The position numbers and the translations under genes were made by a program. Source: Mytilus edulis (taxonomy: Eukaryota). Taken from it: 64,000 bases of DNA. The notes under the pieces are model-generated. The model was not told the DNA's origin and searched no databases. It saw only the letters and a program-made list of their open reading frames with translations. Shown here one piece after another: positions 1,681-63,470 of this stretch; position 1 is the stretch's first letter; each line of letters starts with the position of its first letter. Location: NCBI RefSeq assembly GCF_963676685.1, contig NC_092348.1, positions 64,852,001-64,916,000 of the forward strand, written 5' to 3'.

Positions 1681-2050
1681 ATAGTTATCAAAGGTATCAG
1701 GATGATAATTTAGTACACCAGACGCGCGTTTCGTCTACATAAGACTCATCAGTAACGATCAGATCAAAATATTTATAGAGCCAAATAAGTAGAAAGTTGA
1801 AGAGCATTGAAGATCCAAAATTCCAAAAAGTGGCGCCAAATACGGCTAAGGCAATCTATGCCTGGGATAAGAAAATCCTTAGTTTTTCGAAAAATTCAAA
1901 GTTTCGTAAACAGGAAATTTATAAAAATGACAACATTATTGATATTCATGTCAGCACCGAAGTGTTGACTACTTGGCTGCTGATACACTCGGGGACGAAA
2001 CTTCCACCAGCAGTGGCATCGACCCAGTGGTGTTAATAGTTATCAAAGGT
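1681..2050 (-). mobile_element. Retrozyme-type non-autonomous retroelement, one ~355-nt unit
   Basis: Terminal redundancy atagttatcaaaggt at 1681 and 2036 (period 355); hammerhead core on the minus strand; homologous to 56770-57178. Confidence 0.8.
1715..1757 (-). ncRNA. Minimal type-I hammerhead ribozyme (core intact, stem I weakened)
   Basis: Minus strand: ucguua-CUGAUGA-GUCU uaugu AGAC-GAAA-C gcgc GUC^-uggugu. Confidence 0.75.
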
Positions 2051-5000
2051 GACAACTGAGTCAATGATTAAACAAAAATTCTTAGTTCACATAATTGTTT
2101 TTGCCAAAACAATAAATGCAGATCAATTATGACTGAACCTGGTTCAACCTATCATTTCTTTTTCTAAAAATGTCCAGTATCAAGTCAGGAATATGGCAGT
2201 TGTTATCTAATAGGACATTTCTATAAACGTTTACGTTTATTTCTGTTGCAGTTAAGTGTTTCTGTGGATCCGTTTTTTTGGCTATTATAGTTGATGTGTT
2301 TCTCTCAATTTTAGTTTGTAACCCAGAATTATTTTCTCTTAATCGATTTATGAGTTTTTTTTTAACAGCGGTATACTACTGTTACTTTTAATTTAAAGGC
2401 ATCAGCAAAGTATTGTTTATCTGACTTATCTAGATAAAAATTAAAAGATATGGTACGGCTACAAATGAGATAACTTTCCATCAGTGAAAATCATCAATGC
2501 AAATAAAATGACGCAACGGAATGATAAAATGTGAAACCAATTAAAAGTGATAACCAAATGCCTGATTTGTGCAGGAAAATAAGTCAGATTAAGAATGATC
2601 TGATTTTCAATTATTGGTCAGAAGTATAACCACTTCAATGAGTGATTCGCCAAGGCTCATATCCCACTCAAGTTTTGGCTAAATCAGCGACCATTTGAGC
2701 CGCTAAAAATACAATCAATGTCTATTAAAGAATCTTACGGGGCAAGGATCGACTTTCCGAATTGATTTTCCTCTAAGTTCAGTATTTTTGTGATTTTACT
2801 TTTTAGGTGATGTTCTATTTTTGTAGATATCAAAAAGGGTGACTGACGGGCGGACATGTGGTAACTCTTGGCCTGCATCCCTCTGGAAGTAAAATATTTG
2901 CCAAAGACAGATCTCCAGTTAGTTATGCGAGATAAACAAGTACGCAGCCACGTCCGGTTAGAACGGGTGCACATTGAGAACCCTTGCAATAATTTTTTGA
3001 TGGATTCGATGCCTTCCATTTGCAAGGCAAAAGTTTTTGTACCTCTGCAATATACCGTCATTTCCAATGGAAGTCATTTTCCCCCCTGATTTTTATCCCG
3101 CACGGCCTCTGTCATAGAGCTTACCAATTGGATTTATTGTTAGTTTTTTATTGTCTTCAACATTCATGAACTATTTGCCATTAATCCTTATGCAATCAAT
3201 AATTTATCAATATGACCAGGTGACATGGCGAGAATTGAATTGTATTGAATGATTTCCACGTCCAGATAAACGCGAGTAGGTTTTGGATTGTCGTCTTGAA
3301 AAAAGGATGATTCGGCTTATCGACATGATGATAAAAAAGAATCGTTTCTATGGTATTTAGAATGTCATCTTGGTATTTTTGTCCATAAAGGGTACAGGCA
3401 ATAACCTGCATATTAATTCTAAAGTCATAAGAAAAACACATTCCAATACTGGTACACCACAAAAACCAAAAGCTATCGTACGAAGAATGTTATATTCTAG
3501 ATATGTGGGGTATCTTTTCCTACTAACACATGTTATGTCTTCGACAGGCTTCAGCAAGAAACTAATTATATCGAGCTGTTCAACATAAGAGAAATATTCA
3601 ATCTTGCTGACCGTGAAAGATTTCCGCCTTATCTTGGAGTATTTTTTTTGTAATCTTCCTTCTCGAGGTCAACCAACTGACTCAGTCTGTCATATAAACA
3701 AAGTGTGATTTATATCAAAATTGATATCTATAGCTAATTCAGTTGTAAAACCACGTTCTGAAATCAATTGGATTAAGCAACTTGACAGATAAAGCTCCGG
3801 AATTGTGATCAGATCCTTCTACATATGTGACACTCTCGTGTCGCTTTGGTCATGTTGGTAGCAATACACAGTTAGGAGTTTGGTTTCGCACTTTGATCCC
3901 GGTTGATTTTTCAGATATGACAGTTATTGTGCAATAAAATTCATTGTAGACGGCTGAGTACTAATTTAGCCTTCAAAGAGGGTTTATAAGAAAATCAAGA
4001 TTATTTTAACATGTTTTATGGGCTATTTTATGTTGGAATCTCCGTATCAGTTTTAGAAAAGGTGTTCCTTCAAGCGATTTAAATTCTACTTCTGGCAAAA
4101 TGTTGGGGAAATATGTGACATCTTCCCCCTCCTTTTAGCAATATTTTACAAATAAATGCAGATTGTTTCGATGGATATACCAAATAGAAAATCGTGTTTT
4201 ATCATTTTAAGTACTGGATATAACATCTACAGAATTACTGAATACATATATAAGGACATATATGAAACAAGCATTTAGCTTAATTTGGAAGAAAGCAATG
4301 AAAAGGAGATGGTAAAATCTATGAGAGTAAATTTCATTCCTAACTGTTTATTGCTACCTAATATAAGTACAAATCCGGTTATAATAGAAAACAGGGATAT
4401 CTAATCATGACACATAATTAGTACATGCGCAACAAAAGAAAATACAAATAAAATAAAGGAAAAGCGCTTTATTTTAAACACATTTATTTATATTTGGAAA
4501 CAAGTTATTGCAATTTATATTTACCCCTTTCCACGTTTTTGTTGCTGTTCTTCACTTGAAGTCACTGTGAGGCCGGCTTGAGCGGAATTCCTTGCAAAAC
4601 TAATTTTAATAGACTATGTAAGCTGTAAAACCACCTAATCGGTCCCGGTCACAGAAAAACATACAGGAAAGTATAACACATTTAAACCAAGATAGTTCCT
4701 ACGCGCAGGTGAAAATAATTCTAATTCAGAAGTTAATTATCAAGCAAAAGAAGTGCGTTACTGTTGTTGCAGAGAAGTAAAAATATCATAATTGGGAATT
4801 GAAAACATCTCTTTGGTCGTAACACTTTGTTATAAACGTATCCCATCGTCACTTCCTAGATGTAAGTCAAGATATGAGACGGACTAAACTGTATCTATTG
4901 TATCGGAATGTAATGTGTAAAACATGTTTGACTAACATACAAATACAAATACTTTAAAAAAAAGAATCTGTATATGTTAAGAAGTGTGTTATAGTACATT

Positions 5001-5898: not shown

Positions 5899-6630
5899 TT
5901 ATTAACCAACTAAGTACATTATTGCCCAAAATGACTGGTTATTAAAAATAACATATTTTCTGTAATGGCCCTGTTTTTCTGTAATGGCCCTATTTTTTTC
6001 TGTAATGGCCCTGTTTTTTTCTGTAATGGCCCTGTTTTTCTGTAATGGCCCTGTTTTTCTGTAATGGCCCTGTTATTTCTGTAATGGCCCTGTTTTCTGT
6101 AATGGCCCTGTATTAATGCCCAGCTTGTCTGTATTAAGCCCAGTTAGGGTTTTTAATAAAGTTAATAAAATTAAGCTGTAAAGAGTATAATACCTTTTTG
6201 TATTTTATTTAATTTAGTAACCAGCAACATACATTAAAGAACCATATAAAGGGATCACTGTTCATCCTGTTTTTCAACACACAACTTCTTTCAACTCAAT
6301 ATCTTGGATATTTGGTATATCTAAAGCTTGATCATGGTGAAGCACAAATTATTTTTTTTTCAAACTAAACTGTCATTAAAAGAGTAAGAGAGTATATCAA
6401 GTTGGCAGCAACACATACACTTTTTTCAGTTGGTTAATAAATGTATTAAGAAATGGGTGTTTTATAATGGCCCTGTTATATGTCCTTGGTCAGTAATAAT
6501 GGCCTTGGATGTCTGTAATGGCCCTCGGCGTTGCCTCGGGCCATTACAGACTTCCTCGACCATTATTACAGACCTTGGACATATAACAGGGCCATTATAA
6601 AAATACCCATTCATTAATACTATAGTAATA
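5899..6630. mobile_element. Non-coding element with 13-bp inverted repeats, an internal tandem array and a ~180-nt terminal hairpin (class uncertain)
   Basis: ttattaaccaact at 5899 and agttggttaataa at 6428-6440; 8 copies of t(n)ctgtaatggccctg at 5956-6110; imperfect palindrome at 6443-6620. Confidence 0.6.
5956..6110. repeat. Tandem array, 8 units of 18-21 bp
   Basis: Repeated ttttctgtaatggccctg with a variable T run. Confidence 0.9.
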
Positions 6631-6838: not shown

Positions 6839-7183
6839 TTTTTACTTTTCTACATTGGCTAGAGGTATAGGGGGAGGGTTGAGATCTCACAAACATGTTT
6901 AACCCCGCCGCACGTTTGCGCCTGTCCCAAGTCAGGAGCCTCTGGCCTTTGTTAGTCTTGTATTATTTTAATTTTAGTTTCTTGTGTACAATTTGGAAAT
7001 TAGTATGGCGTTCATTATCACTGAACTAGTATATGTTTGTTATGGGGCCAACTGAAGGACGCCTCCGGGTGCGGGAATTTCTCGCTACTTTGAAGACCTG
7101 TTGGTGACCTTCTGCTGTTGTTTTTTCTATGGTCGGGTTGTAGTCTCTTTGGCACATTCCCCATTTCCATTCTCAATTTTATT
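6839..7183 (+). mobile_element. SINE-like repeat family A (3' end ...cccatttccattctcaatttt)
   Basis: Interrupts the right arm of the 5611-7430 inverted repeat. Partial copies at ~5318-5530(-), 10584-10677, 10975-11330(-), 21548-21717(-), 22050-22127 and 54030-54320. Confidence 0.75.
6857..6947 (+). ncRNA. Twister ribozyme-like fold, P5-permuted (repeat family A)
   Basis: P5 GGCUAGAGG/CCUCUGGCC; GGGG-GAGGG; U^AA-CCCC-GCC; P3 GCA/UGC; G-CCUG-UCCCAAGU-CAGG. Matches the twister consensus elements UAA, GCC, GUCCCAAG and GAGGG. Confidence 0.75.
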
Positions 7184-19376: not shown

Positions 19377-21205
19377 AAGAGGGACGAAAGATACCAGAGG
19401 GACAGTCAAACTTATAAGTCGATAATAAACTGACAACGACTAGATAAAAATGATAAAAGACAAACAGACAAACAATTGAACATATACCACAACATAGAAA
19501 ACTAAAGAATAAGCAACACGAACCCCACTAAAAACTAGGGGTGATCTCAGGTGCTCCGGAAGGGTAAGCAGATCCTGCTCCAGATGTGAATCCCGTCGTG
19601 TTGCTTATGTAATAACAAATCCGGTAAATAGTCTAACTCGGTAGGTCACATTCATGAAAGGGAAGGGGGTTGTAGTTACGACGTAAGGAACATATCCGAT
19701 ATCATTTGTGAAACGGTTATTCCATTACGGTCAACCAACTCGTGATGGCGTCCGTAAAATTTACGAAGGGATGATTTCAACTTCACCATTTGGAACTCTT
19801 GGTTAGATAGCTTCCGTATGAGCAGCAACCTCTATCAAGAAAATAATGATAGGAAATGCAAGCACGGGAATATCGTATCAATTGGGAGATATATGCAAGT
19901 GCTGATGGAATGTTGCTACTTAGAAATGGAAAGTTCACAATTGGAAAGCTTAAATCATCTCTTTCGTCGTAAAGTTTTGTTTTCAACCGACCTTCATTGT
20001 CAATTTCTATTTGTAAGTCAAGATATGAGACCGACTTAACTGTATCTGTTGTATCCTTTATCTCTAGTTCGATGGGATAGATGCGTTCAAAATAGTCACA
20101 AATTTTTAATTATATAGTGAAAGAACGTCATCTGTATAGCGGAAAGAAGAGTTAAAAAGGATATTGCTAAATTCTTATCTTTCTTCCTAAGAAGTTCCTG
20201 TATGAGGTCAGCCTCATAATGATAAAGAAAAAAGTCGGCAAGAAGAGGGGCCGACAGTTTGTTGAAAAACACATCCTCTGAACGTAACAAATATGTTGTT
20301 GTTAATAAAAAAAATCAAGCATCTTGATAATGTCAGTGTCAGAGAATTTTTTGTTTGAATAGGAGTGATCCTTTACCAAGTAGGATTTATCCCTCTGTTA
20401 GACAAGATACTTGTACCTACGTTGCCCATTCTTTTTTTATGAAACAAAGCAATACCAACTCTTTAAATTTGTCTTATAGTTTGGAATATGGAATACTTGT
20501 GTTAAGTTTAGAAAAGTCAAATGTGTTAATAGTATTGCAAGATGAAAGAGAGTTAGATTGTATGTAGTCTAAAAGATCTTTGGAATTTTTAAGTATCCAC
20601 ATCTGATTCACGTCACCTCTAGAATAGCCAGTTTCACATAACTTTGAAGCCCGTCTTAGATTGCTGATAAAAGTTAATAATTTAGAAAGAGGTTTCGTGG
20701 AGCACTTGGAAGACCCAGCAATATACCGTTGCTTGTAAGGACACTTATGTAGTTTAGGTATCCAATACAGTGACGGAAGATCAAGTTCTTCGGTTTTGGT
20801 TGAAATTCCAAAAGAACAGAGAAAAACAGACCTATGATTATCCAGGATTTCCTCATCGGTAAGTGTCATGAGGGTATATGTTGAGTTTCCAAGTAAATTG
20901 TCAATACCTAATTCGTTTATCAAGCAGTTAATGTAATGAGTTTTACACACAAAAACGATTTTGTTTAGGGCTTTATCTGCGGGGACAACAACATATTTGT
21001 CACGGACGTAGGATAAGTGTTTTGTAACATTTTGGTCTTTAAAGGTTGATGTAGCATGAGCATTGATAGACTCAATCATTTTTTAATTCTGATTTGTATC
21101 AACGACCTCACTGCCTTAATCCATTCGGAAAGAGTGTCTATGTCTTCCTTCTCGCGCTTAGCCATTGCCTGGCATAATCCTCGACCGAATCCATCACAAT
21201 TTTTA
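19377..21205 (-). mobile_element. 5'-truncated, decayed Penelope-like retroelement (RT plus 3' UTR; no C-terminal endonuclease, as in the Naiad/Chlamys type)
   Basis: Fragments VVVPADKA, LPSLYWIPKLHKCPYKQRYIAGS, MWILKNSK, TFDFSKL..SIP, APLLADFFL, LYDERDDLSFPIVNFPFLSSNIP, YISQLIRYSRAC; many frameshifts. 3' UTR copies at ~40020-40372, 38720-38900(-) and 49950-50230. Confidence 0.85.
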
Positions 21206-28689: not shown

Positions 28690-29095
28690 AAGACTTTTCC
28701 AACTGAATTTTATAGTTTGTTCTTATGTTGTTGTACTGTTACACACTATCCCATGTTAGGTGAGAGTTGGGATCCCGTTACATGTTTAAACCCGCCACGT
28801 TCTTTGTGTATTTGCCTGTCCCGAGTTAGAAGCCTGTTATTCAGTAGTTATCGCATGTTGATGTGTAACATATTTATTTTTCGTTCATTTTTTTGTACAT
28901 AAATTAGGCCTTTAGTTTTCTTGTTTGAATTGTGTTCCATTTGGCACTTCCGGGCCTTTTTTTAACTGACTATGGGGTATATGCTTTGCTCCTTGTTGAA
29001 GACCTTACGGTGACCAATATTTGTTAATATACGTGTCATTTGGTTTCTTGTGGAGAGTTGTCTCATTGGCAATCATACCACATCTTCTTTTCTTA
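28690..29095 (+). mobile_element. SINE-like repeat family B (3' end ...tctcattggcaatcataccacatcttc)
   Basis: Related copies at ~9950-10372, 22417-22660, 25460-25725, 28410-28680(-), 35875-36365, 47038-47262(-) and 47998-48480(-); boundaries approximate. Confidence 0.7.
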
Positions 29096-34617: not shown

Positions 34618-34659
34618 GCGTTCCTGATGAAGGTAAATCCAGAAACGCGTTTCGGACGC
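34618..34659 (+). ncRNA. Minimal type-I hammerhead variant (second family), in repeat ~34485-34690
   Basis: GCGUUC-CUGAUGA-a GG uaaau CC a-GAAA cgcgu UUC^-GGACGC; an inverted, more decayed copy lies at 32449-32490. Confidence 0.65.
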
Positions 34660-35615: not shown

Positions 35616-38600
35616 ATGCATGTCGACAAATCCTCGGTAGGTGTTGTTTTTTTAAAATATCTTAACCGCTGCCTGTAAGTCGATTACAAGCTACTGTATA
35701 TGTTCATATCAAGCGATGTGGTATTCAATAAGGACCATCTAACAATAGTTATACTTTGCTTTTTCAGCAACTGTGTTTACTTTAATCATGTTTAGCAAAC
35801 AGTATTTGTTAATTTCATTGAATTACAAACTAAACAAAATAGTAAAGTTTCTTTCAGAGGCTAAAATAAGAAAACATACATAAATAAGGCCGTTAGTTTT
35901 CTCGTTAGAATTGATTTACTTTGTCATTTCGGGGCCTTTTTTATAGCTGACTATGCGGTATGGGCTTTGTTCATTTTTGAAAGCCGCATGGTGATCTATA
36001 GCTGTTAATTTCTGTGTCATTTGTCACCCCTATTTTTGACATTTTTACCTATTATGTCTGTTTGTTTTGTTCACGCATCGGTGACTATATAATGGAATTT
36101 GATGCGACTGTCATACAAGTGAGAGGTTTAGCTAGCTATAAAACCAGGTTCAATCCACCATTTTCTACATTTGAAAATGCCTGTACCAAGTCAGGAATAT
36201 GACAGTTCTTGTCCATTCGTTTTGATGCGTTTTGTTTTTTGATTTTGCTATGTGATTATGGACTTTCCAAATTGATTTTCCTCTGAGTTCAGTATTTTTG
36301 TGATTTTACTTTTTTGTACTCTTGTGGTGATTTGTCTCATTGGCAATCATACCACATCCTTTTTCTTTAAAAACTAATTACTAAGGCTTACCAAAAAAAA
36401 AAGTAAAATCACAAAAATACCGAACAAAAAATTAAATCGGAAAGTCCCTAATCACATGGCAAACTACCAAGTTCATCGACATTAAGACCAATACCGGTTC
36501 TCGATTTGTGTGATTGACGTCATTGAACAATCGGTTCTTACTGTGACTTAATACCATACGCATAGTCACAACGAAAATGTACGGGGAAGTGCACGAATTC
36601 GAAAGTTGTCTATCGGATATTGGCCTCTACTATTTATACTTTTATATCTATATATTTCAGTATCTTCAAAACGATTTTATAAATTATAAAACTTGATATA
36701 GTTTACTGGTTTTGTTCAGACAAAAGAAACTTTTAAATTGATATGGTGTTTTATTTCTCTTTTCGGATTTCAACTTCAAATTTTGAATTTATAATTTTGA
36801 AATTTCAAATTAAAATTTCATTCTGAATATCCAATTAAAACTTTTAATTCTGATTGACAAATGTCAAATTTAAAGTTTCAATTTTAAAATCAAATTTAAA
36901 CTTCCCTCTCTGAATTTTAAATTTCTAACCTTTTAAACGTCTTCTTCTGTTCCATGTTTACCTTATTTCTCACTCACTTACTTCCAGTTATAAATGTCAA
37001 TATCAAAAACTCGCAAATACTTTACTTGCTTTTGAAACAATTGAACACCAAATATCAACTGATCTACTTATATATGTATAAGCAAGTATAGTTCATTTTA
37101 CGGCCTCCAACAATGACTACAACCAATACCGTAAAGTGAGCTACAAAAAGACCTAAATGATGAAAGGTAAAACAATCCAAACAAGAAATCCATTGGCCTG
37201 ACTTAAATCATATTATGAAAGAAAGAAAAAATATAGACATACAACAATCAAACAATTGACAGATACCAAACAATTGACAGATACCAAACAATTGACAGAT
37301 ACAATACACTTGACAGATACCAAACAATTGAAAAATACCAAAAAATTGACAAATACCAAACAATTGACAGATACAATACACTTGACAGATACCAAACAAT
37401 TGACAGATACCAAACAATTGACAGATACCAAAGAATTAAAAAATACCAAACAATTGACAAATACCAAACACTTGACAAATACCAAACACTTGACAAATAC
37501 CAAACATATCATTTATTTAAATAGTATGGCTTATTATAAGTAACCAATATGCTATTATGTATACGTACATTGCATTATTGTTTCTTGATCGATTTTTCTA
37601 AAAGTTAATTGATAGAAAAGATTATTAAAATAAAAATGCATTTAAATTATAAACATGCATGAAGATGAGATCCCATCTTTATTAATTTGTTGTAGTTATT
37701 TTCTGTCTTCAGAAGACCGTCATAATATTTTAAAGCATTGCTAGATTTTGTTTTGCAGATCAGTCTGTTATTGTCTTTGTTCATAGCGAGTTTTCTTCAA
37801 AATGTAGAAGCAGATATTTTGAACAATCAAACAAATGGCACATATTACAAAACTGACTGTTTTGAGAGGGGGATTAATATAATATGTTTCAAACAATTTC
37901 TACAACCGGCAGTAGAGACACTGAATGATACAAGTTCCTCTAATTTCTTATCGGCATTATGGAGAAAGATCAACAGTGAAGCTGATACAGCTGCTAATTC
38001 CCGCCACAAAAGACAGGCGGTTGGTGTACCAATCAGGCGGGAAGTCAGAGCAGCTCCATACGAAACCAATTTCTTACGTTACGCACTAGCTGTACGGAGG
38101 TTAAAGAACCATTATGTAAGTACTATTGTAGTAATAATTTGATTACAGCGCAAGACCAAACATCCTCCATAGTTTCATGAAATTTTACTTCAAATTCCTA
38201 AATTTCAACAACTTTTTTTACACTATCTTTTAGATTTTTATGATTTATACGGTAAATGCATTTTACATGCGTTTACAAAGCTTTAAAGTTTCGTCTTTTC
38301 TATAAACCCTCGAGGGGCAAAATATACCAAAGTCGAATATGTTTTTAAATATCTATTTTTAAGTCCTTATAATAAATACACATTTATAATATGATGATGT
38401 TGTTAGCTTTGGGATCGTTTCAAATGTAAGATAGATTTACATAGTTTGTGTTAATATCAAAATGAAGTAAAAAGTAAAAGAAAGATGAGGAAAATATAAT
38501 TGTATTAAATAGAATGCGGTTTTGTTTTAGTTTTCATTAGAATGTAAGAAGATCGAAATAAAATAGAGAACACATTTTCATGAAATGATTTTTCTGAAGG

Positions 38601-41600
38601 TTAACTGAAATGAAGTCTGAAATTGGTTCATTGAATATTTTACAGGTGTATTAAATGTTGCAATGATAATGATAAACAATTCAAAAAGTAAAAATTAGCA
38701 ATATACCATAAAGCTTCAAAAAGAGGGACGAAAGATACCAGAAGGACCGTCAAACTCATAGATGGAAAATAAGTCAAACAGACAAATAATAGTACAGAAG
38801 ACACAACATAGAAAGCTAAAGAATAAGCAACCCCACTAAAAACTGGGGAGGGGGTGCCCTCAGGTGCTCCGGGAGGGAATGCAGATCTTGCTCCACTTCA
38901 ATATGTCACAAACACAAATAAATGTTTTTCATCTAATGAACAATTTATTGAATGTAGATGAAGGTCAATTATCTTGAACTTAAGGATGTACTTAGGTGAA
39001 ATTCAAAGAATCAAGAATTTAAAATTGATACTTGACGTTCGTTGGAAGAGCATTAGTTAAGAAACAAAATAAGCTAAACAAAAATAATAGGTCATGGATC
39101 TCCTTTTTGATATATTTTATTTTAAAAATATGGCGAGAAAAGACAGACTCGGACTTTTACCGTATATTTACACTGGCATTATTAGGGTCTCAAATAAAAA
39201 GAATAAAATTTAAGAATTTGATTAAATTTTGGAAAATGACCTTTTATAATGTTTATCCGCTATTAAATATTGCATGAAAAGATAAACGGGTGTTATGGGT
39301 CAAAACATTTTACATTGTATTATACGGAAAAAAAATTCCAAAATTCACAGTTCACAGAAAAACATCCTTGAGATGATCAATTCACTCTTTAAACATCAGA
39401 TAGAAGAAAACATTTTACCGGTAAAGAGTTACTTCATTCTACAAGGGGTTATATTAGGACACTCAACACTGCTAATTAAAGCAAATTGAGTATTCAGATC
39501 AAATAAAGCAATAACCGTTTATTTTATTCAATATTTTAGGGAGTTCGTTCTGATTTGAATACCTATGACATCCTTGCAAGCATTCATACAGGGAGTAACT
39601 CTGAACACGATGGACCTGGTTTTCTATCTTGGCATAGAATATACCTTTTATTGTAAGTAAACGTAAATAAAAATAAGCCGTTAAAGATATAGGGCGTCCA
39701 AAGAATTTTTCCGAGTAGTTAATGCCAGGGACCATTTACCAAAAGAAAAAGCCTTGAAATATAAAGACTTAAATAGCTAAATGAAACGAGGGGACGTAAA
39801 ATAGCAAAAACAATTCAGAGATAATTTGTGATAGTTACCATTTCAAGATAACTAACTCAAGATTATTGTTTTTACTTTACACATCCTTCTTTATAAATGT
39901 TAAGTCAAACAGTTGTACCGTTTGGTGATACCAAATCTTAATTGGTTACGGTCGTGTATGTGCTCACAGTATGATTTAACAAAGGTGTGCTCCTAACACA
40001 AGATGAAATCGACATTACAGTAGTTTTACGGTCACCACTACGACTTTTTTGAACTATACGATGCCTTCACTAGTTACAATCCCCTTCCCTTTCTCGAATG
40101 TGAACTACCGAATTAGACTATTTACCAGATTTGTTATAACATGAGCAACACGACGGGATCCACATGTGGAGCAGGATCTGCTTACCCTTCCGGAGCACCT
40201 CAGATCAACCCTAGTTTTTGGTGGGGTTCGTTGCTTATTCTTCAGTGTTTCTATGTTGTGTCATGTGTACAATTGTTTGTCTGTTTGTCTTTTTCATTTT
40301 TAGCCATGGTGTTGTCACTTTATTTTCGATTTATGAGTTTGACTGTCCCTCTGGTATCTTTCGACCCTCTTTTACATGTTTTTGTAATCTTAGATGCCAG
40401 GATAATCGCCCGATCTATAATATTGATTGTGTCCAACTCTTAATACTGTGGATTCATTATTATTCGTTGGATACTAATTTTCGTTGGTATCGTTGGTACT
40501 GGCGAACCACGAAATTAAGGCTTCATCGAATAAGAAATTTTCTAAAAGGTAATACTAGTATGCAGATTTTGGCAAAAGCACGAAATCAAATATCTACGAA
40601 CATGCAAGTTTGCCTCAACTCACGAACATTTGTACCCACGAAAATAAATTAATTCACAGTAGTAACATTTTAACTGAGTGAAAATTGACATGTATATCAA
40701 AACAAGTTGACTCTGTCGGCGCACTCGGAAGTCATTTGATTCTCTAAAGAATGTTTAGCTTATATATAACTGAATGGTGAGATTTGAACATATGTTATAT
40801 TTCATATATTCAAATGTGACGTAATTTTTAATGCCTTTTCACCATCGTCTGTGACGTCATTTTCATAATTTACTGCGTTGAGGCCTGGACTGAGTCAAGT
40901 GTGTCTATTCTATGTTGGTCTTTTTGCATTATGTATTCATGTTTGTTTTATGTAATGAGTTAATACTTCAGTTTCATTGTGTATATCTGTTATATTCATT
41001 TGATAAAATTTACTGTTTGCAATATCATTAATTGTTCTAAATAATAAGGATGTTCTTATCCCAAGCATAAAAACATAGCCGTATTTAACACAACCTTTTT
41101 CAACTTTTGATCTTCAGTGCTGTACAACTTTGTACTTTTTTTCGCTTTTGATCTTTTATATCTGGGCGTCACTGGTGAGTCTTGTGTGGACAAGGCTCGT
41201 TTTTGGCGTATTGAATTTTAAACCTGATGCTTTTTGTTATTCATTAATCATGTGTTTCTTTGTCTAATACGTTCACCTATTTATTTGTATTGTAGTCCTG
41301 TAATATTATGTTGTCATTTCAATGTTATATTTAACATTGCCATTAAAGTGCGAGGTTTGGCATGCCACAAAACCAGGTTCAACCCACCATTTTTTCCTTT
41401 AAAAATGTCCTGTACCAAGTCAGGAATATGGCCATTGTTATATTATAGTTCGTTTCTGTGTGTGTTACAATTTAATGTTGCGTCGTTTGTTTTCTATTAT
41501 TTTTGAGTGTAAATTGACATTGCGATAAGACGTGTCAAGGTACTTGTCTATCCAAAATTCTTGTATTTGGTTTTGATGTTATATTTGTTATTCTCGTGGG

Positions 41601-47175: not shown

Positions 47176-47217
47176 ACGCCAGACGCGTTTCGTCTACACA
47201 AGACTCATCAGTGACGC
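47176..47217 (-). ncRNA. Minimal type-I hammerhead ribozyme within a 5'-truncated retrozyme insertion
   Basis: Minus strand: GCGUCA-CUGAUGA-GUCU ugugu AGAC-GAAA-C gc GUC^-UGGCGU; stem I pairs over 6 bp. Confidence 0.8.
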
Positions 47218-49246
47218 TCATATCAAAATATTTACAGCTATAAAAGGACCCGAAATGACAAATGAAGTATATATTCTAGGTAATGACGTTCTTTATCCTC
47301 TTCATAACGTGTTTTGCTATCAGTACTCATTTGATGTAACTCGATACTTTTACATCCGGTAAATGTTGTTGTTGTACTATGGTAAATTTTTGTATTTTTG
47401 TCTTTCGTTTTTGCTAATGTGTTTTGTCTATACATATCTTTTTTTGTCTTTGCTGATATTTTTGTCTGTTTTTATAGTGATTAGTTTAAAACACAAAGTT
47501 AACTGTTGTTTCCCTATTTTAGACATTTTAACCAATTATGCCTGTTTGGTTTGTTTACACATCGGTGTCGATAAAAGGAAATTTCATGCGTCTGTCATAC
47601 ATATGAGAGGTTTATCTAACTATAAACCCAGGTTTAATCCACCACTTTTTAAATAATAAAATGTCTTTACCAAGGCAGAAACATGACAGTTGTTATCAAT
47701 TCATTTGATATGTTTGAGGTTTTGTTTTTGGTATTTGATAAGGGACTTTCCGTTAAGAATTTTCCTGTTTCCTTTTAACTACGTTTTGTATAAAGTAAAA
47801 CAAAAGATCCAATCTCCTAGAAAAATCAATTTATGCAAATTCGTTCTTGAGTCGAAGTTCTAAATCTTTTGAGGAGGAATGACGGAGGAGTTTTTTTTTA
47901 AATTATTGTCGATGTATCTTGCAATAAAAACAATATCACATGTGGAAGAATACGTCAATGAATTGGAAAAGAAATGCAATTTTGCGATAAATGGATAAAA
48001 GAAGATATGGTGTGAGTGCTTATGAGACAACTCTCCATCAAAGTTACAATGTGTAAGAATAAACCATTATAGGTCTTCAACACGGAGACTTAGCTCACAC
48101 CGAACAGCAAGCTATATAAGGCCCCCAAAAATTAGTAGTGTAAACACATTCAAAAGAAAAACCAACGGTCTAATCTATATAAAAAACGAGAAACTAAAAA
48201 CATTTATGAACCACATCAACAAACAACTACTACTGAACATCTAATTCCTGACTTAGGACAGGTGTAAACATATGCAGCGGTTTTATACGTTTTAGTTAGA
48301 ACCAACCTTCACCCTTTTCTGAAACATTAATGTAACATTACAACAGAGAAAGACACATTATCAAATATAATTTGAAATGGCTTAACCCAACCAAAAGACA
48401 TATCAACACAAGTGAACATACACTGAACGAATAAATTTCATCCATGACACAGTCTAAATACAAAATCAATAAAATAAGGGGTTCATAAATAAAGGCAACA
48501 ATAGCATACAGCTGTAAAATGTTTAATAATTACAGAAAGTACACCATAAACTTGAACAAATAACATGCCCGTCAAATAGAACATTGAACACAGGTAAAAG
48601 ATGTCAATTGTGTTGTAATGTATACAGTGTAAATGGAAATGGAAATATTCTTTTTTCATAGTACGAGAAACAAAAGTGAAAGTTTATAGTCAGACTAAAC
48701 ACTTATCAAAGCTGATAGTTATTAAAAATAGAGAAACATTAAATAACAAAAAATATTTATTTATAAATGGATGAAATGTATTCATTATATTAGTTCAATT
48801 GTATCAACAGGTCAAATTAACATAAAGTACGATTTTAGAGTGCTCGCAGTTACTAAAGGTTAGTAAATAGCCAAAATCAATTGATAATAAAAAAAATCAT
48901 GCACCAGAGACTAAAATCATCTATAAAAATGCCTGGGATTTATTATTTTAACGTCCTTGACAGTCAAAGAAGACATGACGTTTGCAATGCCAAAAATAAA
49001 AGCATCGACAGGCTGTAGGACAGTTAGGAGTTAACCTCTATATAGAAAATTTGAACGTGGATGTGTATTTCACAAAAAATACATCTCAAATCCATACATA
49101 ATCTTTCAAGTATTTACAGTTTAAATTCAAATAATAAGTAAAACTAAATATATAAGCAAACTAAAGTTTTTCTCCAGGCTTCAATGATTTGCTATCGTTA
49201 AATGTACGCATTTGATAAATTTCTTTTCTTTTTGCATTTCATTTTA

Positions 49247-56769: not shown

Positions 56770-57178
56770 GAAACGCGCGTCTGGCGTACTAAATTATAAT
56801 CCTGGTACCTTTAATTACTATTTACACCACTGGGTCGATGCCACTGATGGTGGACGTTTCATCCCCGAGGGTATCACCAACCCAGCAGTTAACACTTCGG
56901 TGTTGACATGAATATCAATTATGTGGTCATTTGTATGAATTTCGTGTTTACAAAACTTTGAATTTTTCGAAAAAACTAAAGATTTTCTTATTCCAGGCAT
57001 AGATTACCTTAGCCGTATTTAGCACAACTTTTTGGAATTTTGGATCCTCAATGCTCTTCAACTTTGTACTTGTTTGGCTTCACTATATATTTTAATATGA
57101 GCGTCACTGATGAGTCTATTGAAGACAAAACGCGCGTCTAGCGTACTTAATTATAATCCTGGTACCTTTGATAACTAT
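56770..57178 (+). mobile_element. Retrozyme-type element spanning two hammerhead cleavage sites 357 nt apart
   Basis: gaaacgcgcGTC^tggcgt (cut after 56781) and a full motif at 57101-57144 (cut after 57138; GAAA>AAAA mutation); internal UUCG hairpin at 56888-56907. Confidence 0.8.
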
Positions 57179-60269: not shown

Positions 60270-63200
60270 TTACCGTAAAACACATATTACAATAACGATA
60301 ATAACAATGACAACCACAATGACACCAATTACTATTCCTGCTATAGCCCCGCCAGCAAGTCCTGTAAAATAAAAATATTATTTAAACAATAATAATACAG
60401 AGTTTTTGTTTTTTGTATATAATTTGTATATAATTTGAGGAAAATATAGAATTTTTGGAGTCTTTAAGATATCAAATCATACTCTTTGTTTGTTCCAAAA
60501 AGTTACAAATCTCCAAATATTTGTTTTTGCGTCTAAATATCGTGACATTTCTAGAGTTCTATGCGTGATTTAAAACGCATGCATAATTTGTAGATTACAA
60601 ATATTTAACAAAAAAAAAGGCAACTGCTTTATAGTTGTTATGCTGCAATAATTGACAGACAAGACTCTCCTTCATCATATTTAGCCTATATGTAGGTATT
60701 GTACATATGTCTTACCTGATTTTTCCATCTCATCTGTAAATAGAAAACAGATATAACAATTTATGCAAAAACATATGAGTGGTGCTCGAATAGATCCAAT
60801 TGAAATTAAAAATCGATAATGAAGTTAATAATCATTTACTGTTTAACACTAGTTATCTTGTGACAGTTTCTGTTCAGTGTGAGCCAAGGCTCCGTGTTAA
60901 GAACCATACTTTGACCTATAACTGTTTAATATTTACATATTGTGATTTGGATGAGTTGTTTCATTGGCACACGTTCCACTTTTTTTCTTTATGTTTGAAA
61001 CCCAAAATTCTTGGATAGAAAAAACAAATATCACTGGAAGGTAAAAATCAAACAAAATCAAATCTAAAATCAATTCTTTTCATCATATTTGCTTCGTCTG
61101 AATTTTTATCACAGTTGTTACGATAATCGAGGGATGGAGTTTCCTAACATTATCTTATTGTTGGTAGGGGATTGCAGCTTGTTGGGTAAATATTCGTAAA
61201 GAAAGACGCGAAGTCATCTCTTCAGTTTTAACTTTTGTTTCTTTGTTTATACTCTCCTTTTAGATATATTTATTAATCAACATATGAATTAATATTACCT
61301 TTTTCGAGAATGCTTATAGAAAGGCTAACTGGCGTATCTTCTCCATGTGTACAAGTCCATTTTACACCATTTTCGTTTGAAGTTAAATCAGAGATAGCTA
61401 CATATATTCCTAACTGATTAGCGCTAAAATTGTATATTCCGGTCGATCCTATATCACAGAAAGGACGATTAGTACATGACGTCATACTCGTGTTGTTTCT
61501 ACTCCATGATGCAAGTTTGCTAAAGTCGGGAATGGAACAAGATATAGTACATGGGCTCCCTAGTACATGGCAATTAGTTTTTATAGCAAGTTGACCTAAA
61601 AAAACAAGTTGTAACTGCACTAGCATTCAATATATCAAATGTTTTATTTCCTTTTAAATATATAGTGTAAAATACTAAACATATTTCTTGTCTGCAAAGA
61701 GAAAAAAATATCTTGACATTGATATATTTCTTAATGTTCTTTTCCTTTGTATCCTTTAAAATAAGTTATAGTATATTCATCATCTTTGGTCATAAGTTGA
61801 TAATAAAAATATATTTTTTCATTGGATCGATTATTTGTAGTTTCGATTATTAACAAACTTGATTCCTGATGCTCCAGAATGACAATCCTGTAATTTTTTC
61901 ATTAAAACGAGAGGCCTTTAAACTACAGGTCAACAGACGAAATTATATTCAGAACAGAACCTGTTTTAAAAGTAGGAATGTAGTCCCCTCCCCTACAAAG
62001 TTGACCATAGACGTTTTTTGTCAAGCTCCTTTGTTTTTTAACAAACAAACTTGATGACGATTATTTAATGAATGTATGAAGTACGGTACGCACAAATCTA
62101 AATATGAATTTCTAGAAAGAAAAACTATGAAATATGTATTTTTTTTAGTTGAGACGTCAGATTGATACTTGCGTAACCTTTAAAACCATAAAGTAAGTAA
62201 GTTACATAACGGACGTTACAGTGTAACACCGTACATATCGATGTGCCTTTCCCAAGATTATAACCATGTCATTTAAATACTAGTAATTTAGCGTTAGATG
62301 CATATCTTGTGCTATGTTTTAAAAAATTATTCAAATATAATTTAAAACTTAAACGTTTAAAAGCACGATTGTCACAATACACTTAGCTTGCCAATTGTTG
62401 AAAGCACCTTGATATTCGATTTTTATGCATTTAGAATGATATTCGATTTTTCTACATTTAGAATGATATTCGATTTTGTTGCATTTAGAATGATATTCGA
62501 TTTTTCTACATTTAGAATGATATTCGATGTTTCTACATTTAGAATTATATTCGATGTTTCTACATTTAGAATGATATTCGATTTTGCTGCATTTAGAATG
62601 ATATTCGATTTTGCTGCATTTAGAATGATATTCGATGTTTTTGCATTTAGAATGAAATTCGATTTTGCTGCATTTAGAATGATATCCGATGTTTCTACAT
62701 TAAGAATGATATTCGATTTTGCTGCATTTAGAATGATATTCGATGTCTTTACATTTAGAATGATATTCATTTTTTTCTGCATTTAGAATGATATTCGAGG
62801 TTTCTACATTTAGAATGATTTTCGATGATTCTACATTTAGAATTATATTCGATTTTGCTGCATTTAGAATGATATTCGATTTTTCTATATTTAAAATGAT
62901 ATTCGATTTTTCTACATTTAGAATGATATTCTATGTTTCTACCTTTAGAATGATATTCGATTTTGCTGCATTTAGAATGATATTCGATTTGTCTACATTT
63001 AGAATGATATGCGATGTTTCTACATTTAGAATGATATTCGATTTTGCTGCATTTAGAATGATAATCGATTTTCTACATTTAGAATGATATTCGATATTTC
63101 TACATTTAGAATGATATTCGATGTTTAGATATTCGATTTTTGTGCATTTAGAATGATATTTGAATTTTCTACATTCAGAATGATATTCGATTTTTCTGCA

Positions 63201-63470
63201 TTTAGATGTAAATCTACCTTCTTTGATCTCTAGCGTGCATATCAAAAAGTCTTTAAGTACTAATGAATTTCAAATTGATTGGTAAAATGTATGTGCAATT
63301 AAAGTTGTCAATAGGTCATTGGTCAGTATATTAAACATGTTAAAGGTAGTGGGGATAATTACAAAAAAAACCTTAATATCAACAGGATCATTTCATCTAG
63401 ATGTTAACTGACCTAATGTTAACACTAAGGTCTGCATACACAAGATCCAATATAAACAGTATGCAGACAT
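60270..63470 (-). CDS. IgB: paralog of IgA, 154 aa as read, with a stop immediately after the TM; exons 63470-63413, 61595-61299, 60733-60716, 60361-60270
   Basis: MSAYCLYWILCMQTLVLTLG; 297-nt Ig exon; 18-nt microexon DEMEKS; TM GLAGGAIAGIVIGVIVVVIVIIVIVICVL then R-TAA. The true 3' end is uncertain. Confidence 0.78.
61299..61595 (-). CDS. IgB Ig-like domain exon
   Basis: tttttttag|GT CAA CTT GCT ... GAA AAA G|gtaata; lies within ORF 61273..61626. Confidence 0.85.
62408..63206. repeat. 27-bp minisatellite, about 30 units, in IgB intron 1
   Basis: Unit atttagaatgatattcgattttgctgc and variant ...gatgtttctac; it produces the periodic ORFs at 62388-63245. Confidence 0.92.

Follow-up and report, generated by a model that had tools for sequence, protein, structure and literature searches.

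A conserved twister-like RNA motif in the pLTR of mussel Naiad Penelope-like retroelements, predicted to self-cleave and possibly to do so as a pair

The plus-strand segment 36107-36206 of the window (the whole stretch of DNA that was analysed, 64,000 nucleotides of Mytilus edulis contig NC_092348.1) almost certainly contains a conserved twister fold, carried in the pLTR of a Naiad Penelope-like retroelement. Judging from its sequence, the motif is probably able to cleave itself and is therefore referred to here as a predicted ribozyme. The explanation that we consider best, and hold with slightly more belief than doubt, is that this RNA cuts itself at C36151^A36152 and that it does so as a pair of copies joined through two palindromes. 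The features of the motif and of its surroundings, all on the plus strand, are listed below.

35877-36364, plus strand: 3' tail of an older Naiad of family D (35877-36022 and 36312-36364, 87% and 85% identical to element L102)
36026-36315, plus strand: 5'-truncated Naiad Penelope-like element of family C (Naiad_Mgal type), representing the 3' end of the pLTR; identity to the 3' end of the full-length element L093 is 97.3% over 291 columns
36107-36206, plus strand: type-P5 twister-like RNA motif, from the fold, Rfam and aligned copies
36107-36115, plus strand: 5' strand of P5, nine perfect pairs with 36198-36206, formed in the RNAfold minimum free energy (MFE) structure
36119-36122, plus strand: 3' strand of P2, GTGA with a bulged U, matching the Rfam consensus position
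36123-36124, plus strand: predicted general-base G36123 and A36124 (GA), matching the Rfam consensus position and falling in invariant columns
36125-36127, plus strand: 3' strand of T1, GGT, partner ACC at 36185-36187
36129-36138, plus strand: palindrome 1, a perfect 10-mer in the slot of the P1 3' strand, self-duplex -15.6 kcal/mol
36142-36150, plus strand: palindrome 2 (4+1+4) in the slot of the P1 5' strand, self-duplex -8.2 kcal/mol
36151-36153, plus strand: predicted cut C36151^A36152 and conserved second A, inferred from the twister consensus
36154-36156, plus strand: 5' strand of P2, TCC, three pairs and one bulged U
36157-36158, plus strand: 5' strand of T2, AC, partner GT at 36190-36191
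36159-36179, plus strand: P3 hairpin (36160-36165 with 36173-36178, closing pair C36159-G36179)
36180-36195, plus strand: P4 (CCTG/CAGG) and L4, containing the partners of T1 (36185-36187) and T2 (36190-36191)

The order of the strands in this segment is that of type P5. RNAfold formed P5, P3 and P4 unprompted (z -2.29, with 3/200 shuffles folding as well), and the reverse strand gave a z of -2.06, so near to the forward value that folding energy does not pick the strand. In a narrow scan the segment scored 19.8 bits against the Rfam twister-P1 model (E 0.056), below the gathering score of 67.2, and a second copy of the motif, at 6857, scored 23.0 bits against Twister-P5 (E 0.0045), below the gathering score of 37.6; an Rfam scan of the whole window detected neither of the two. 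In an alignment of 12 copies the general-base G, the general-acid A and the second A are invariant (columns G17, A46 and A47). All four pairs of P4 are formed in 12/12 aligned copies, an invariance of P4 and L4 that is built in, because the copies were found through this core. The motif works like a type-P5 twister, yet it is no plain member of that class: P1 is absent, the Rfam scores lie below the gathering thresholds and cleavage itself is a prediction.

Four further copies of the motif are found in the window, each belonging to a Naiad family other than C.

6857-6947, plus strand: copy of family A, a different Naiad family (Twister-P5 match given above)
28745-28845 (approximate ends), plus strand: decayed copy of family D
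41336-41435 (approximate ends), plus strand: copy of family B, whose loci have their own reverse transcriptase (RT) upstream
48236-48330 (approximate ends), minus strand: partly decayed copy of family E (core at 48262), with a U-A inner T1 pair and a U-A pair closing P3

Genome-wide, the exact P4/L4 core occurs 44,943 times, against 0 matches for the reversed pattern. At least five families carry it (A to E were sampled, C consisting of the two subfamilies C1 and C2), and some loci of each have a Naiad-type RT upstream that is 37-65% identical to the RT of family C (42% for family A, at L049, L051, L055 and L058). The family survey covered 196 cores in 209 sequences, of which 163 were parsed, 131 of them distinct; since the parser accepted only set letters at the middle T1 pair and at the C-G pair of T2, and the loci were picked by similarity, invariance at these two pairs is not evidence. 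The 3' untranslated regions (UTRs) of families B and C align only at the motif, those of A and C only at the 18-nt core and one 22-nt piece, and families D and E are related over longer stretches. A pattern search for family B returned 3,238 matches in the genome. A CCG-type P4 was also looked for in the mussel genome; there were 18 matches, most of them mutated copies, as compared with 9 in the control, and no such family was found. At L210-L212 (G000:C1:6000986), the segment from the predicted cut to L4 forms a 40-nt tandem array.

The original prediction had compared the segment with the copy at 6857, in which T1 is CCC:GGG and T2 is GC:GT, and every pairing that it listed is present. P5 and P3 are indeed rewritten and still paired (nine pairs in P5, six in P3 plus the closing C-G) and P4 is the same in both copies; as had also been stated, P2 is shorter (three pairs, one U being bulged) and the predicted scissile step lies between C36151 and A36152. 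Compensatory change had been claimed for both pseudoknots: this is right for the outer T1 pair, which changes on both sides, and wrong for T2, where the change from G.U to A-U is one-sided. Taken alone, the two pseudoknot changes are weak evidence, and the outer T1 pair does not, as had been proposed, give the strongest evidence in the window: in the family E copy two pairs, the inner one of T1 and the one that closes P3, have both partners replaced. The view that the fold is kept across diverged families stands, with the addition of the host element and the two palindromes, which had been overlooked. The family majorities retain the pairings, the loss of which from consensus sequences had been named as the finding that would speak against selection on the fold.

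The first pair of T2 is G.U in families A, D and E and A-U in B and C. In the 12-copy alignment T2 is paired in 24/24 cells, its variation within the mussel genome being one-sided only (A-U 6, G.U 6), and T1 is paired in 35/36 cells, two of its pairs changing on both sides; 59/60 pseudoknot cells are thus paired. The outer T1 pair is C-G in 31/32 copies of family A, 11/12 of D and 12/12 of E, and A-U in 20/20 copies of B and 35/35 of C1. It is broken in 12/18 copies of C2 (A.G 11, A.A 1), even beside intact 1053-aa open reading frames (ORFs; L099 and L100). All 12 family E copies have U-A at the inner T1 pair, which is C-G elsewhere, and 12/12 have U-A at the pair closing P3. P2 has four pairs in families A, D and E, three and a bulge in C, and a C.C mismatch in 10/20 copies of B. 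The residue before the predicted cut is C in 34/35 copies of C1 and U in 16/18 of C2.

Over the whole 12-copy alignment, which was made with MAFFT and not fitted to the structure, 86.2% of the cells pair as against 30.5-47.1% for slid controls, and 16/29 pairs change on both sides; the aligned copies are related, so that the shuffle control overstates the significance, and family A is off register in P5 and family B in P3, by which the pair counts are lowered. RNAalifold recovered P3 and P4 and missed P5 and P2 because the registers differ between families; it favours a weak alternative helix for the T1 strand.

The last 330-400 nt of 50/54 published Naiad consensuses were read by eye, and the file was also searched for core motifs. 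The motif was observed in 6/50 of these 3' ends, namely those of Mgal, Bpla, Mphi, Scon, Mmer and the box jellyfish element Naiad-1_Movir, all six of which also keep the general-base G and the two A residues that follow the cut. Both clam consensuses have T2 CC:GG and P4 ACCG/CGGU, each a two-sided change, and the outer T1 pair is U.U in three bivalve consensuses (both clams and Mphi). Naiad-1_Movir has T1 CAC:GUG, T2 GC:GC, a perfect P2 and no P3; its P4/L4 is one letter off the Rfam consensus, and it contains two 8-nt palindromes. When all data are taken together, a two-sided change is seen at least once at every T1 pair and at the variable T2 pair. These comparisons support a fold kept across diverged families, the better covariation being that at the inner T1 pair of family E, at T2 of the clams and at the middle T1 pair of the jellyfish. 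Related copies were also found in metagenome contigs, a few of them adjoining a Naiad-like RT. A pattern search of prokaryote and metagenome sequences gave 241 matches, mostly chance, and 31 rows passed a structural filter. L401 (two copies), L292, L351 and L448 are ordinary type-P5 twister candidates with a P1 hairpin, and L401 has T2 AC:GU, as in family C.

The copy in the window is a dead-on-arrival fragment, the insertion of which split the older family D tail. At 30 genomic loci the 3' end is constant, about 165 nt past the predicted cut, and the 5' ends are variable; long family C copies extend into the RT ORF. The motif lies downstream of the ORF in 7/7 full-ORF elements fetched and additionally upstream in 4/7 (partial tandems, pLTRs), and the distance from cut to cut in four tandem elements is 4110-4327 nt. 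The 1053-aa ORF has a GIY-YIG domain (PF01541, aa 179-269, E 9.9e-07) N-terminal to the RT, for which the RVT_1 match is weak (aa 822-903), and the translation of L093 contains the CxC and DKA motifs that are named as Naiad features in PMC8557442. When compared by eye, family C agrees with the published consensus of Naiad_Mgal both at the start of the ORF and across the motif. By sequence, then, the host is a Naiad Penelope-like element, its clade placement resting on this by-eye match. An origin from a retrozyme or an LTR element was rejected, as the upstream sequence is the Naiad ORF. Two further arrangements of family C were observed: L095 has two full-length ORFs tail-to-tail, about 2 kb apart, and about 80 nt after the element at 36026-36315 the window has an inverted family C-like 3'-end fragment (36397-36450, minus strand, 81% identical), to which a weak MIR2606 match is due.

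Compared with the Rfam family RF02684 (clan CL00120, PMC5408937), the mussel motif is alike in having its termini in P5, in P4 and in part in P2, in the GA before T1, the AA after the cut and the layout of L4, and in a T1 of three pairs plus A.A and a T2 of two pairs. It differs in that two palindromes replace the P1 hairpin, P4 is CCUG/CAGG, the first T2 pair is A-U or G.U, P2 is bulged in families B and C, the score is under the gathering threshold and activity is predicted. The twister variants of the Schistosoma element Perere-3 (PMC8501958) are likewise tied to a retrotransposon and have a weak or missing P1. In Perere-3, a type-P1 motif stands at the 5' end of an APE-type non-LTR element and insertions start at the cut, whereas the Naiad motif is of type P5, lies in the pLTR about 165 nt from the 3' end and has no excess of breaks at the cut.

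The spacer between T1 and the predicted cut is 20-23 nt long, and 9/9 Naiad-type spacers lack the P1 hairpin (0 to -1.1 kcal/mol), in contrast to six other P5-type candidates from prokaryote and metagenome contigs, which form it (-1.3 to -18.9 kcal/mol, three of them strong). The slot is occupied by the two palindromes. An arm of at least four is found for palindrome 1 in 32/35 copies of C1. The central tetramers vary (GAUC, CAUG, CUAG, GCGC, GUAC, and UGCA in Mphi), and all are self-complementary; that the sequence switches between families with self-complementarity kept, which a hairpin loop does not require, points to dimers. Both palindromes at their observed lengths occurred in 0.015-0.045% of shuffles for A, B, C1, C2 and D and in 3% for E, in search windows that were picked after the data were seen; for family E, the commonest variant tested represents only 2/12 copies. 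In metagenome loci such as L372, palindrome 1 is reduced to a wobble-closed 6-mer, and palindrome 2 is lost in L460. From this analysis it appears fairly likely that the palindromes pair two RNAs, and we judge the chances to be even that such pairing is needed for cleavage. At 12 places (e.g. G000:C2:18790557), family C copies are without the whole two-palindrome spacer, which was lost between two short direct repeats; these copies are scattered, with no sign of amplification.

In the mechanism that we favour, two copies of the motif would join through the palindromes standing in the P1 slot. A lone copy would tend to fold its T1 strand onto the spacer and so stay uncut, and in a tandem transcript, pairing between the two motifs, which are separated by 4.1-4.3 kb, would free the core, perhaps with help from the protein of the element. 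Cutting at both motifs would then release one unit-length RNA, the ends of which would remain together through P5, P2 and T1 and so be available for ligation or read-through.

The alternative that survives best, and that we nevertheless regard as unlikely, is a monomeric twister without P1, in which cleavage is independent of the palindromes and these pair RNA copies for other ends (RNP assembly, template switching). Twisters without P1 cut at a near wild-type rate (PMC5408937), P1 being thus dispensable; because such twisters are able to act as monomers, dimer formation may be unnecessary. Naiads with a non-twister motif also have a palindrome at a similar place, so that it may be a general Naiad signal. 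In the monomer, all six family MFE structures tie up part of the GA-T1 strand, which speaks against a working monomer; the cost of a free core is only 2.6-5.2 kcal/mol, an amount that could be recovered by tertiary folding. It is also against the monomer that in mussels, clams and the cnidarian the palindromes stand exactly in the P1 slot, the second one ending at the scissile site.

Traces of cleavage were searched for in RNA and in DNA. The motif is represented by 2577-3109 reads in each of four RNA runs; the reads run in both directions, and 38-44% of them have U at -1. At 90% or 97% likeness, 4/4 runs showed no accumulation of read ends at the predicted cut, a test of low power because the reads are of two orientations and coverage of the ORF is very thin (0-5x in its 5' half). 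In the genome, breaks are no commoner at the predicted cut (65) than at control sites (79 and 67); since small deletions and duplicated loci are among those counted (whole-spacer deletions make up 12 of the 67), only a strong peak could have shown. Every insertion that was examined near the 3' end had been copied across an intact motif, which implies a template that was uncut or re-joined. The RNA reads also contain another 40-nt back-jump, ending two bases before the cut.

These results bear on the proposal that a twister-derived fold is kept as a protein-binding or priming site on the Naiad RNA, without cutting in vivo. We consider it improbable, even though it agrees with the missing end signal in RNA and DNA, with insertions copied across the intact motif, and with the finding that insertion in vitro can proceed without a Penelope hammerhead (PMC11167929). 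Against it stands the invariance of the general-base G and of the two As, while the helices change freely. Moreover, the same two blanks are reported for the Penelope hammerhead, which cuts only once protein is added (Frangieh et al., PMC11167929). In natural twisters a C at -1 is tolerated, as are imperfect P1 and P2 stems, wobble pairs in either pseudoknot and an A.G in the longer of the two (PMC11662667), and so no departure seen here rules out activity. Chance resemblance with shared repeat descent and no structural selection, to which the weak Rfam scores and the relatedness of the copies in the shuffle controls could point, is very improbable and already largely refuted, as four different T1/T2 pairs change on both sides across families and phyla, the flanking UTRs are unconserved and the cnidarian copy is near-canonical.

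A close parallel to the paired reading is found in the minimal type I hammerheads of Penelope-like elements (PMC6765202, PMC11167929), which share with the Naiad motif the slot in the pLTR, the tandem layout, a palindrome replacing a stem and RNA-seq data without cleaved ends, and for which a dimer model exists. Cleavage of these hammerheads is likely to take place in dimers, and their loop is palindromic (PMC6765202); the Naiad motif belongs to another ribozyme class and has two palindromes as against one palindromic loop. Craig et al. 2021 (PMC8557442) found no canonical hammerhead in Naiads, and the word twister is absent from the text and supplement of that paper as available, as it is from the available text of bioRxiv 10.64898/2026.07.22.740005; unpublished truncated twisters in RTE elements are mentioned in PMC7761336. 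In the openly accessible full-text literature (PMC10085705, PMC6154101 and PMC7229834 among it), no report of a twister in a Naiad or other Penelope-like element was found, and none of a natural dimer-type twister in the literature searched.

Other motifs were observed at Naiad 3' ends. In the supplement of PMC8557442, the two halves of a hammerhead core, together with long helices, occupy the corresponding 3' position in the nematode Naiads Nbra-2, Nbra-3, Hcon, Hpol and Asuum. A second conserved Naiad motif is located in the window at 40130-40260 (plus strand) and 19490-19620 (minus strand), and at L201:2920-3028, directly after a further Naiad-type RT. It has a 10-nt palindrome, a possible pseudoknot and no twister core, which makes it a candidate for an undescribed ribozyme; one copy, scanned against Rfam, gave no convincing match, and similar motifs occur in published oyster, ark clam, pearl oyster, hemichordate and hydrozoan consensuses. 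Given the nematode hammerhead halves at the same position, the slot holds at least three kinds of motif. The window also has hammerhead-like repeats at 1715-1758 (minus), 47187-47211 (minus), 57098-57136 (plus) and 34624-34646 (plus), which are probably those of a known mussel retrozyme family, and tandem arrays at 62410-63206 (27-nt units), 37249-37506 (18 nt) and 5956-6111 (19 nt).

As a wider proposal, which we put forward tentatively and with some doubt, the twister in the Naiads of mussels, clams and a box jellyfish may be obligately dimeric, with a pair of intermolecular helices standing for P1 and cleavage confined to tandem or paired RNAs, and the pLTR may be a slot in which some Naiad lineages have a hammerhead, some a twister and some a third kind of fold, so far undescribed. 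How Naiads prosper although they lack the hammerhead of other Penelope-like elements was left as a question by Craig et al. 2021 (PMC8557442), and a twister in the slot of the hammerhead answers it with a motif that can be tested. If our reading is true, the approximately 45,000 intact cores in one genome, all below the Rfam thresholds, would be a very large twister population, and the use of the same palindrome trick by an unrelated ribozyme class would mean that Penelope-like elements need paired cleavage and not a particular fold.
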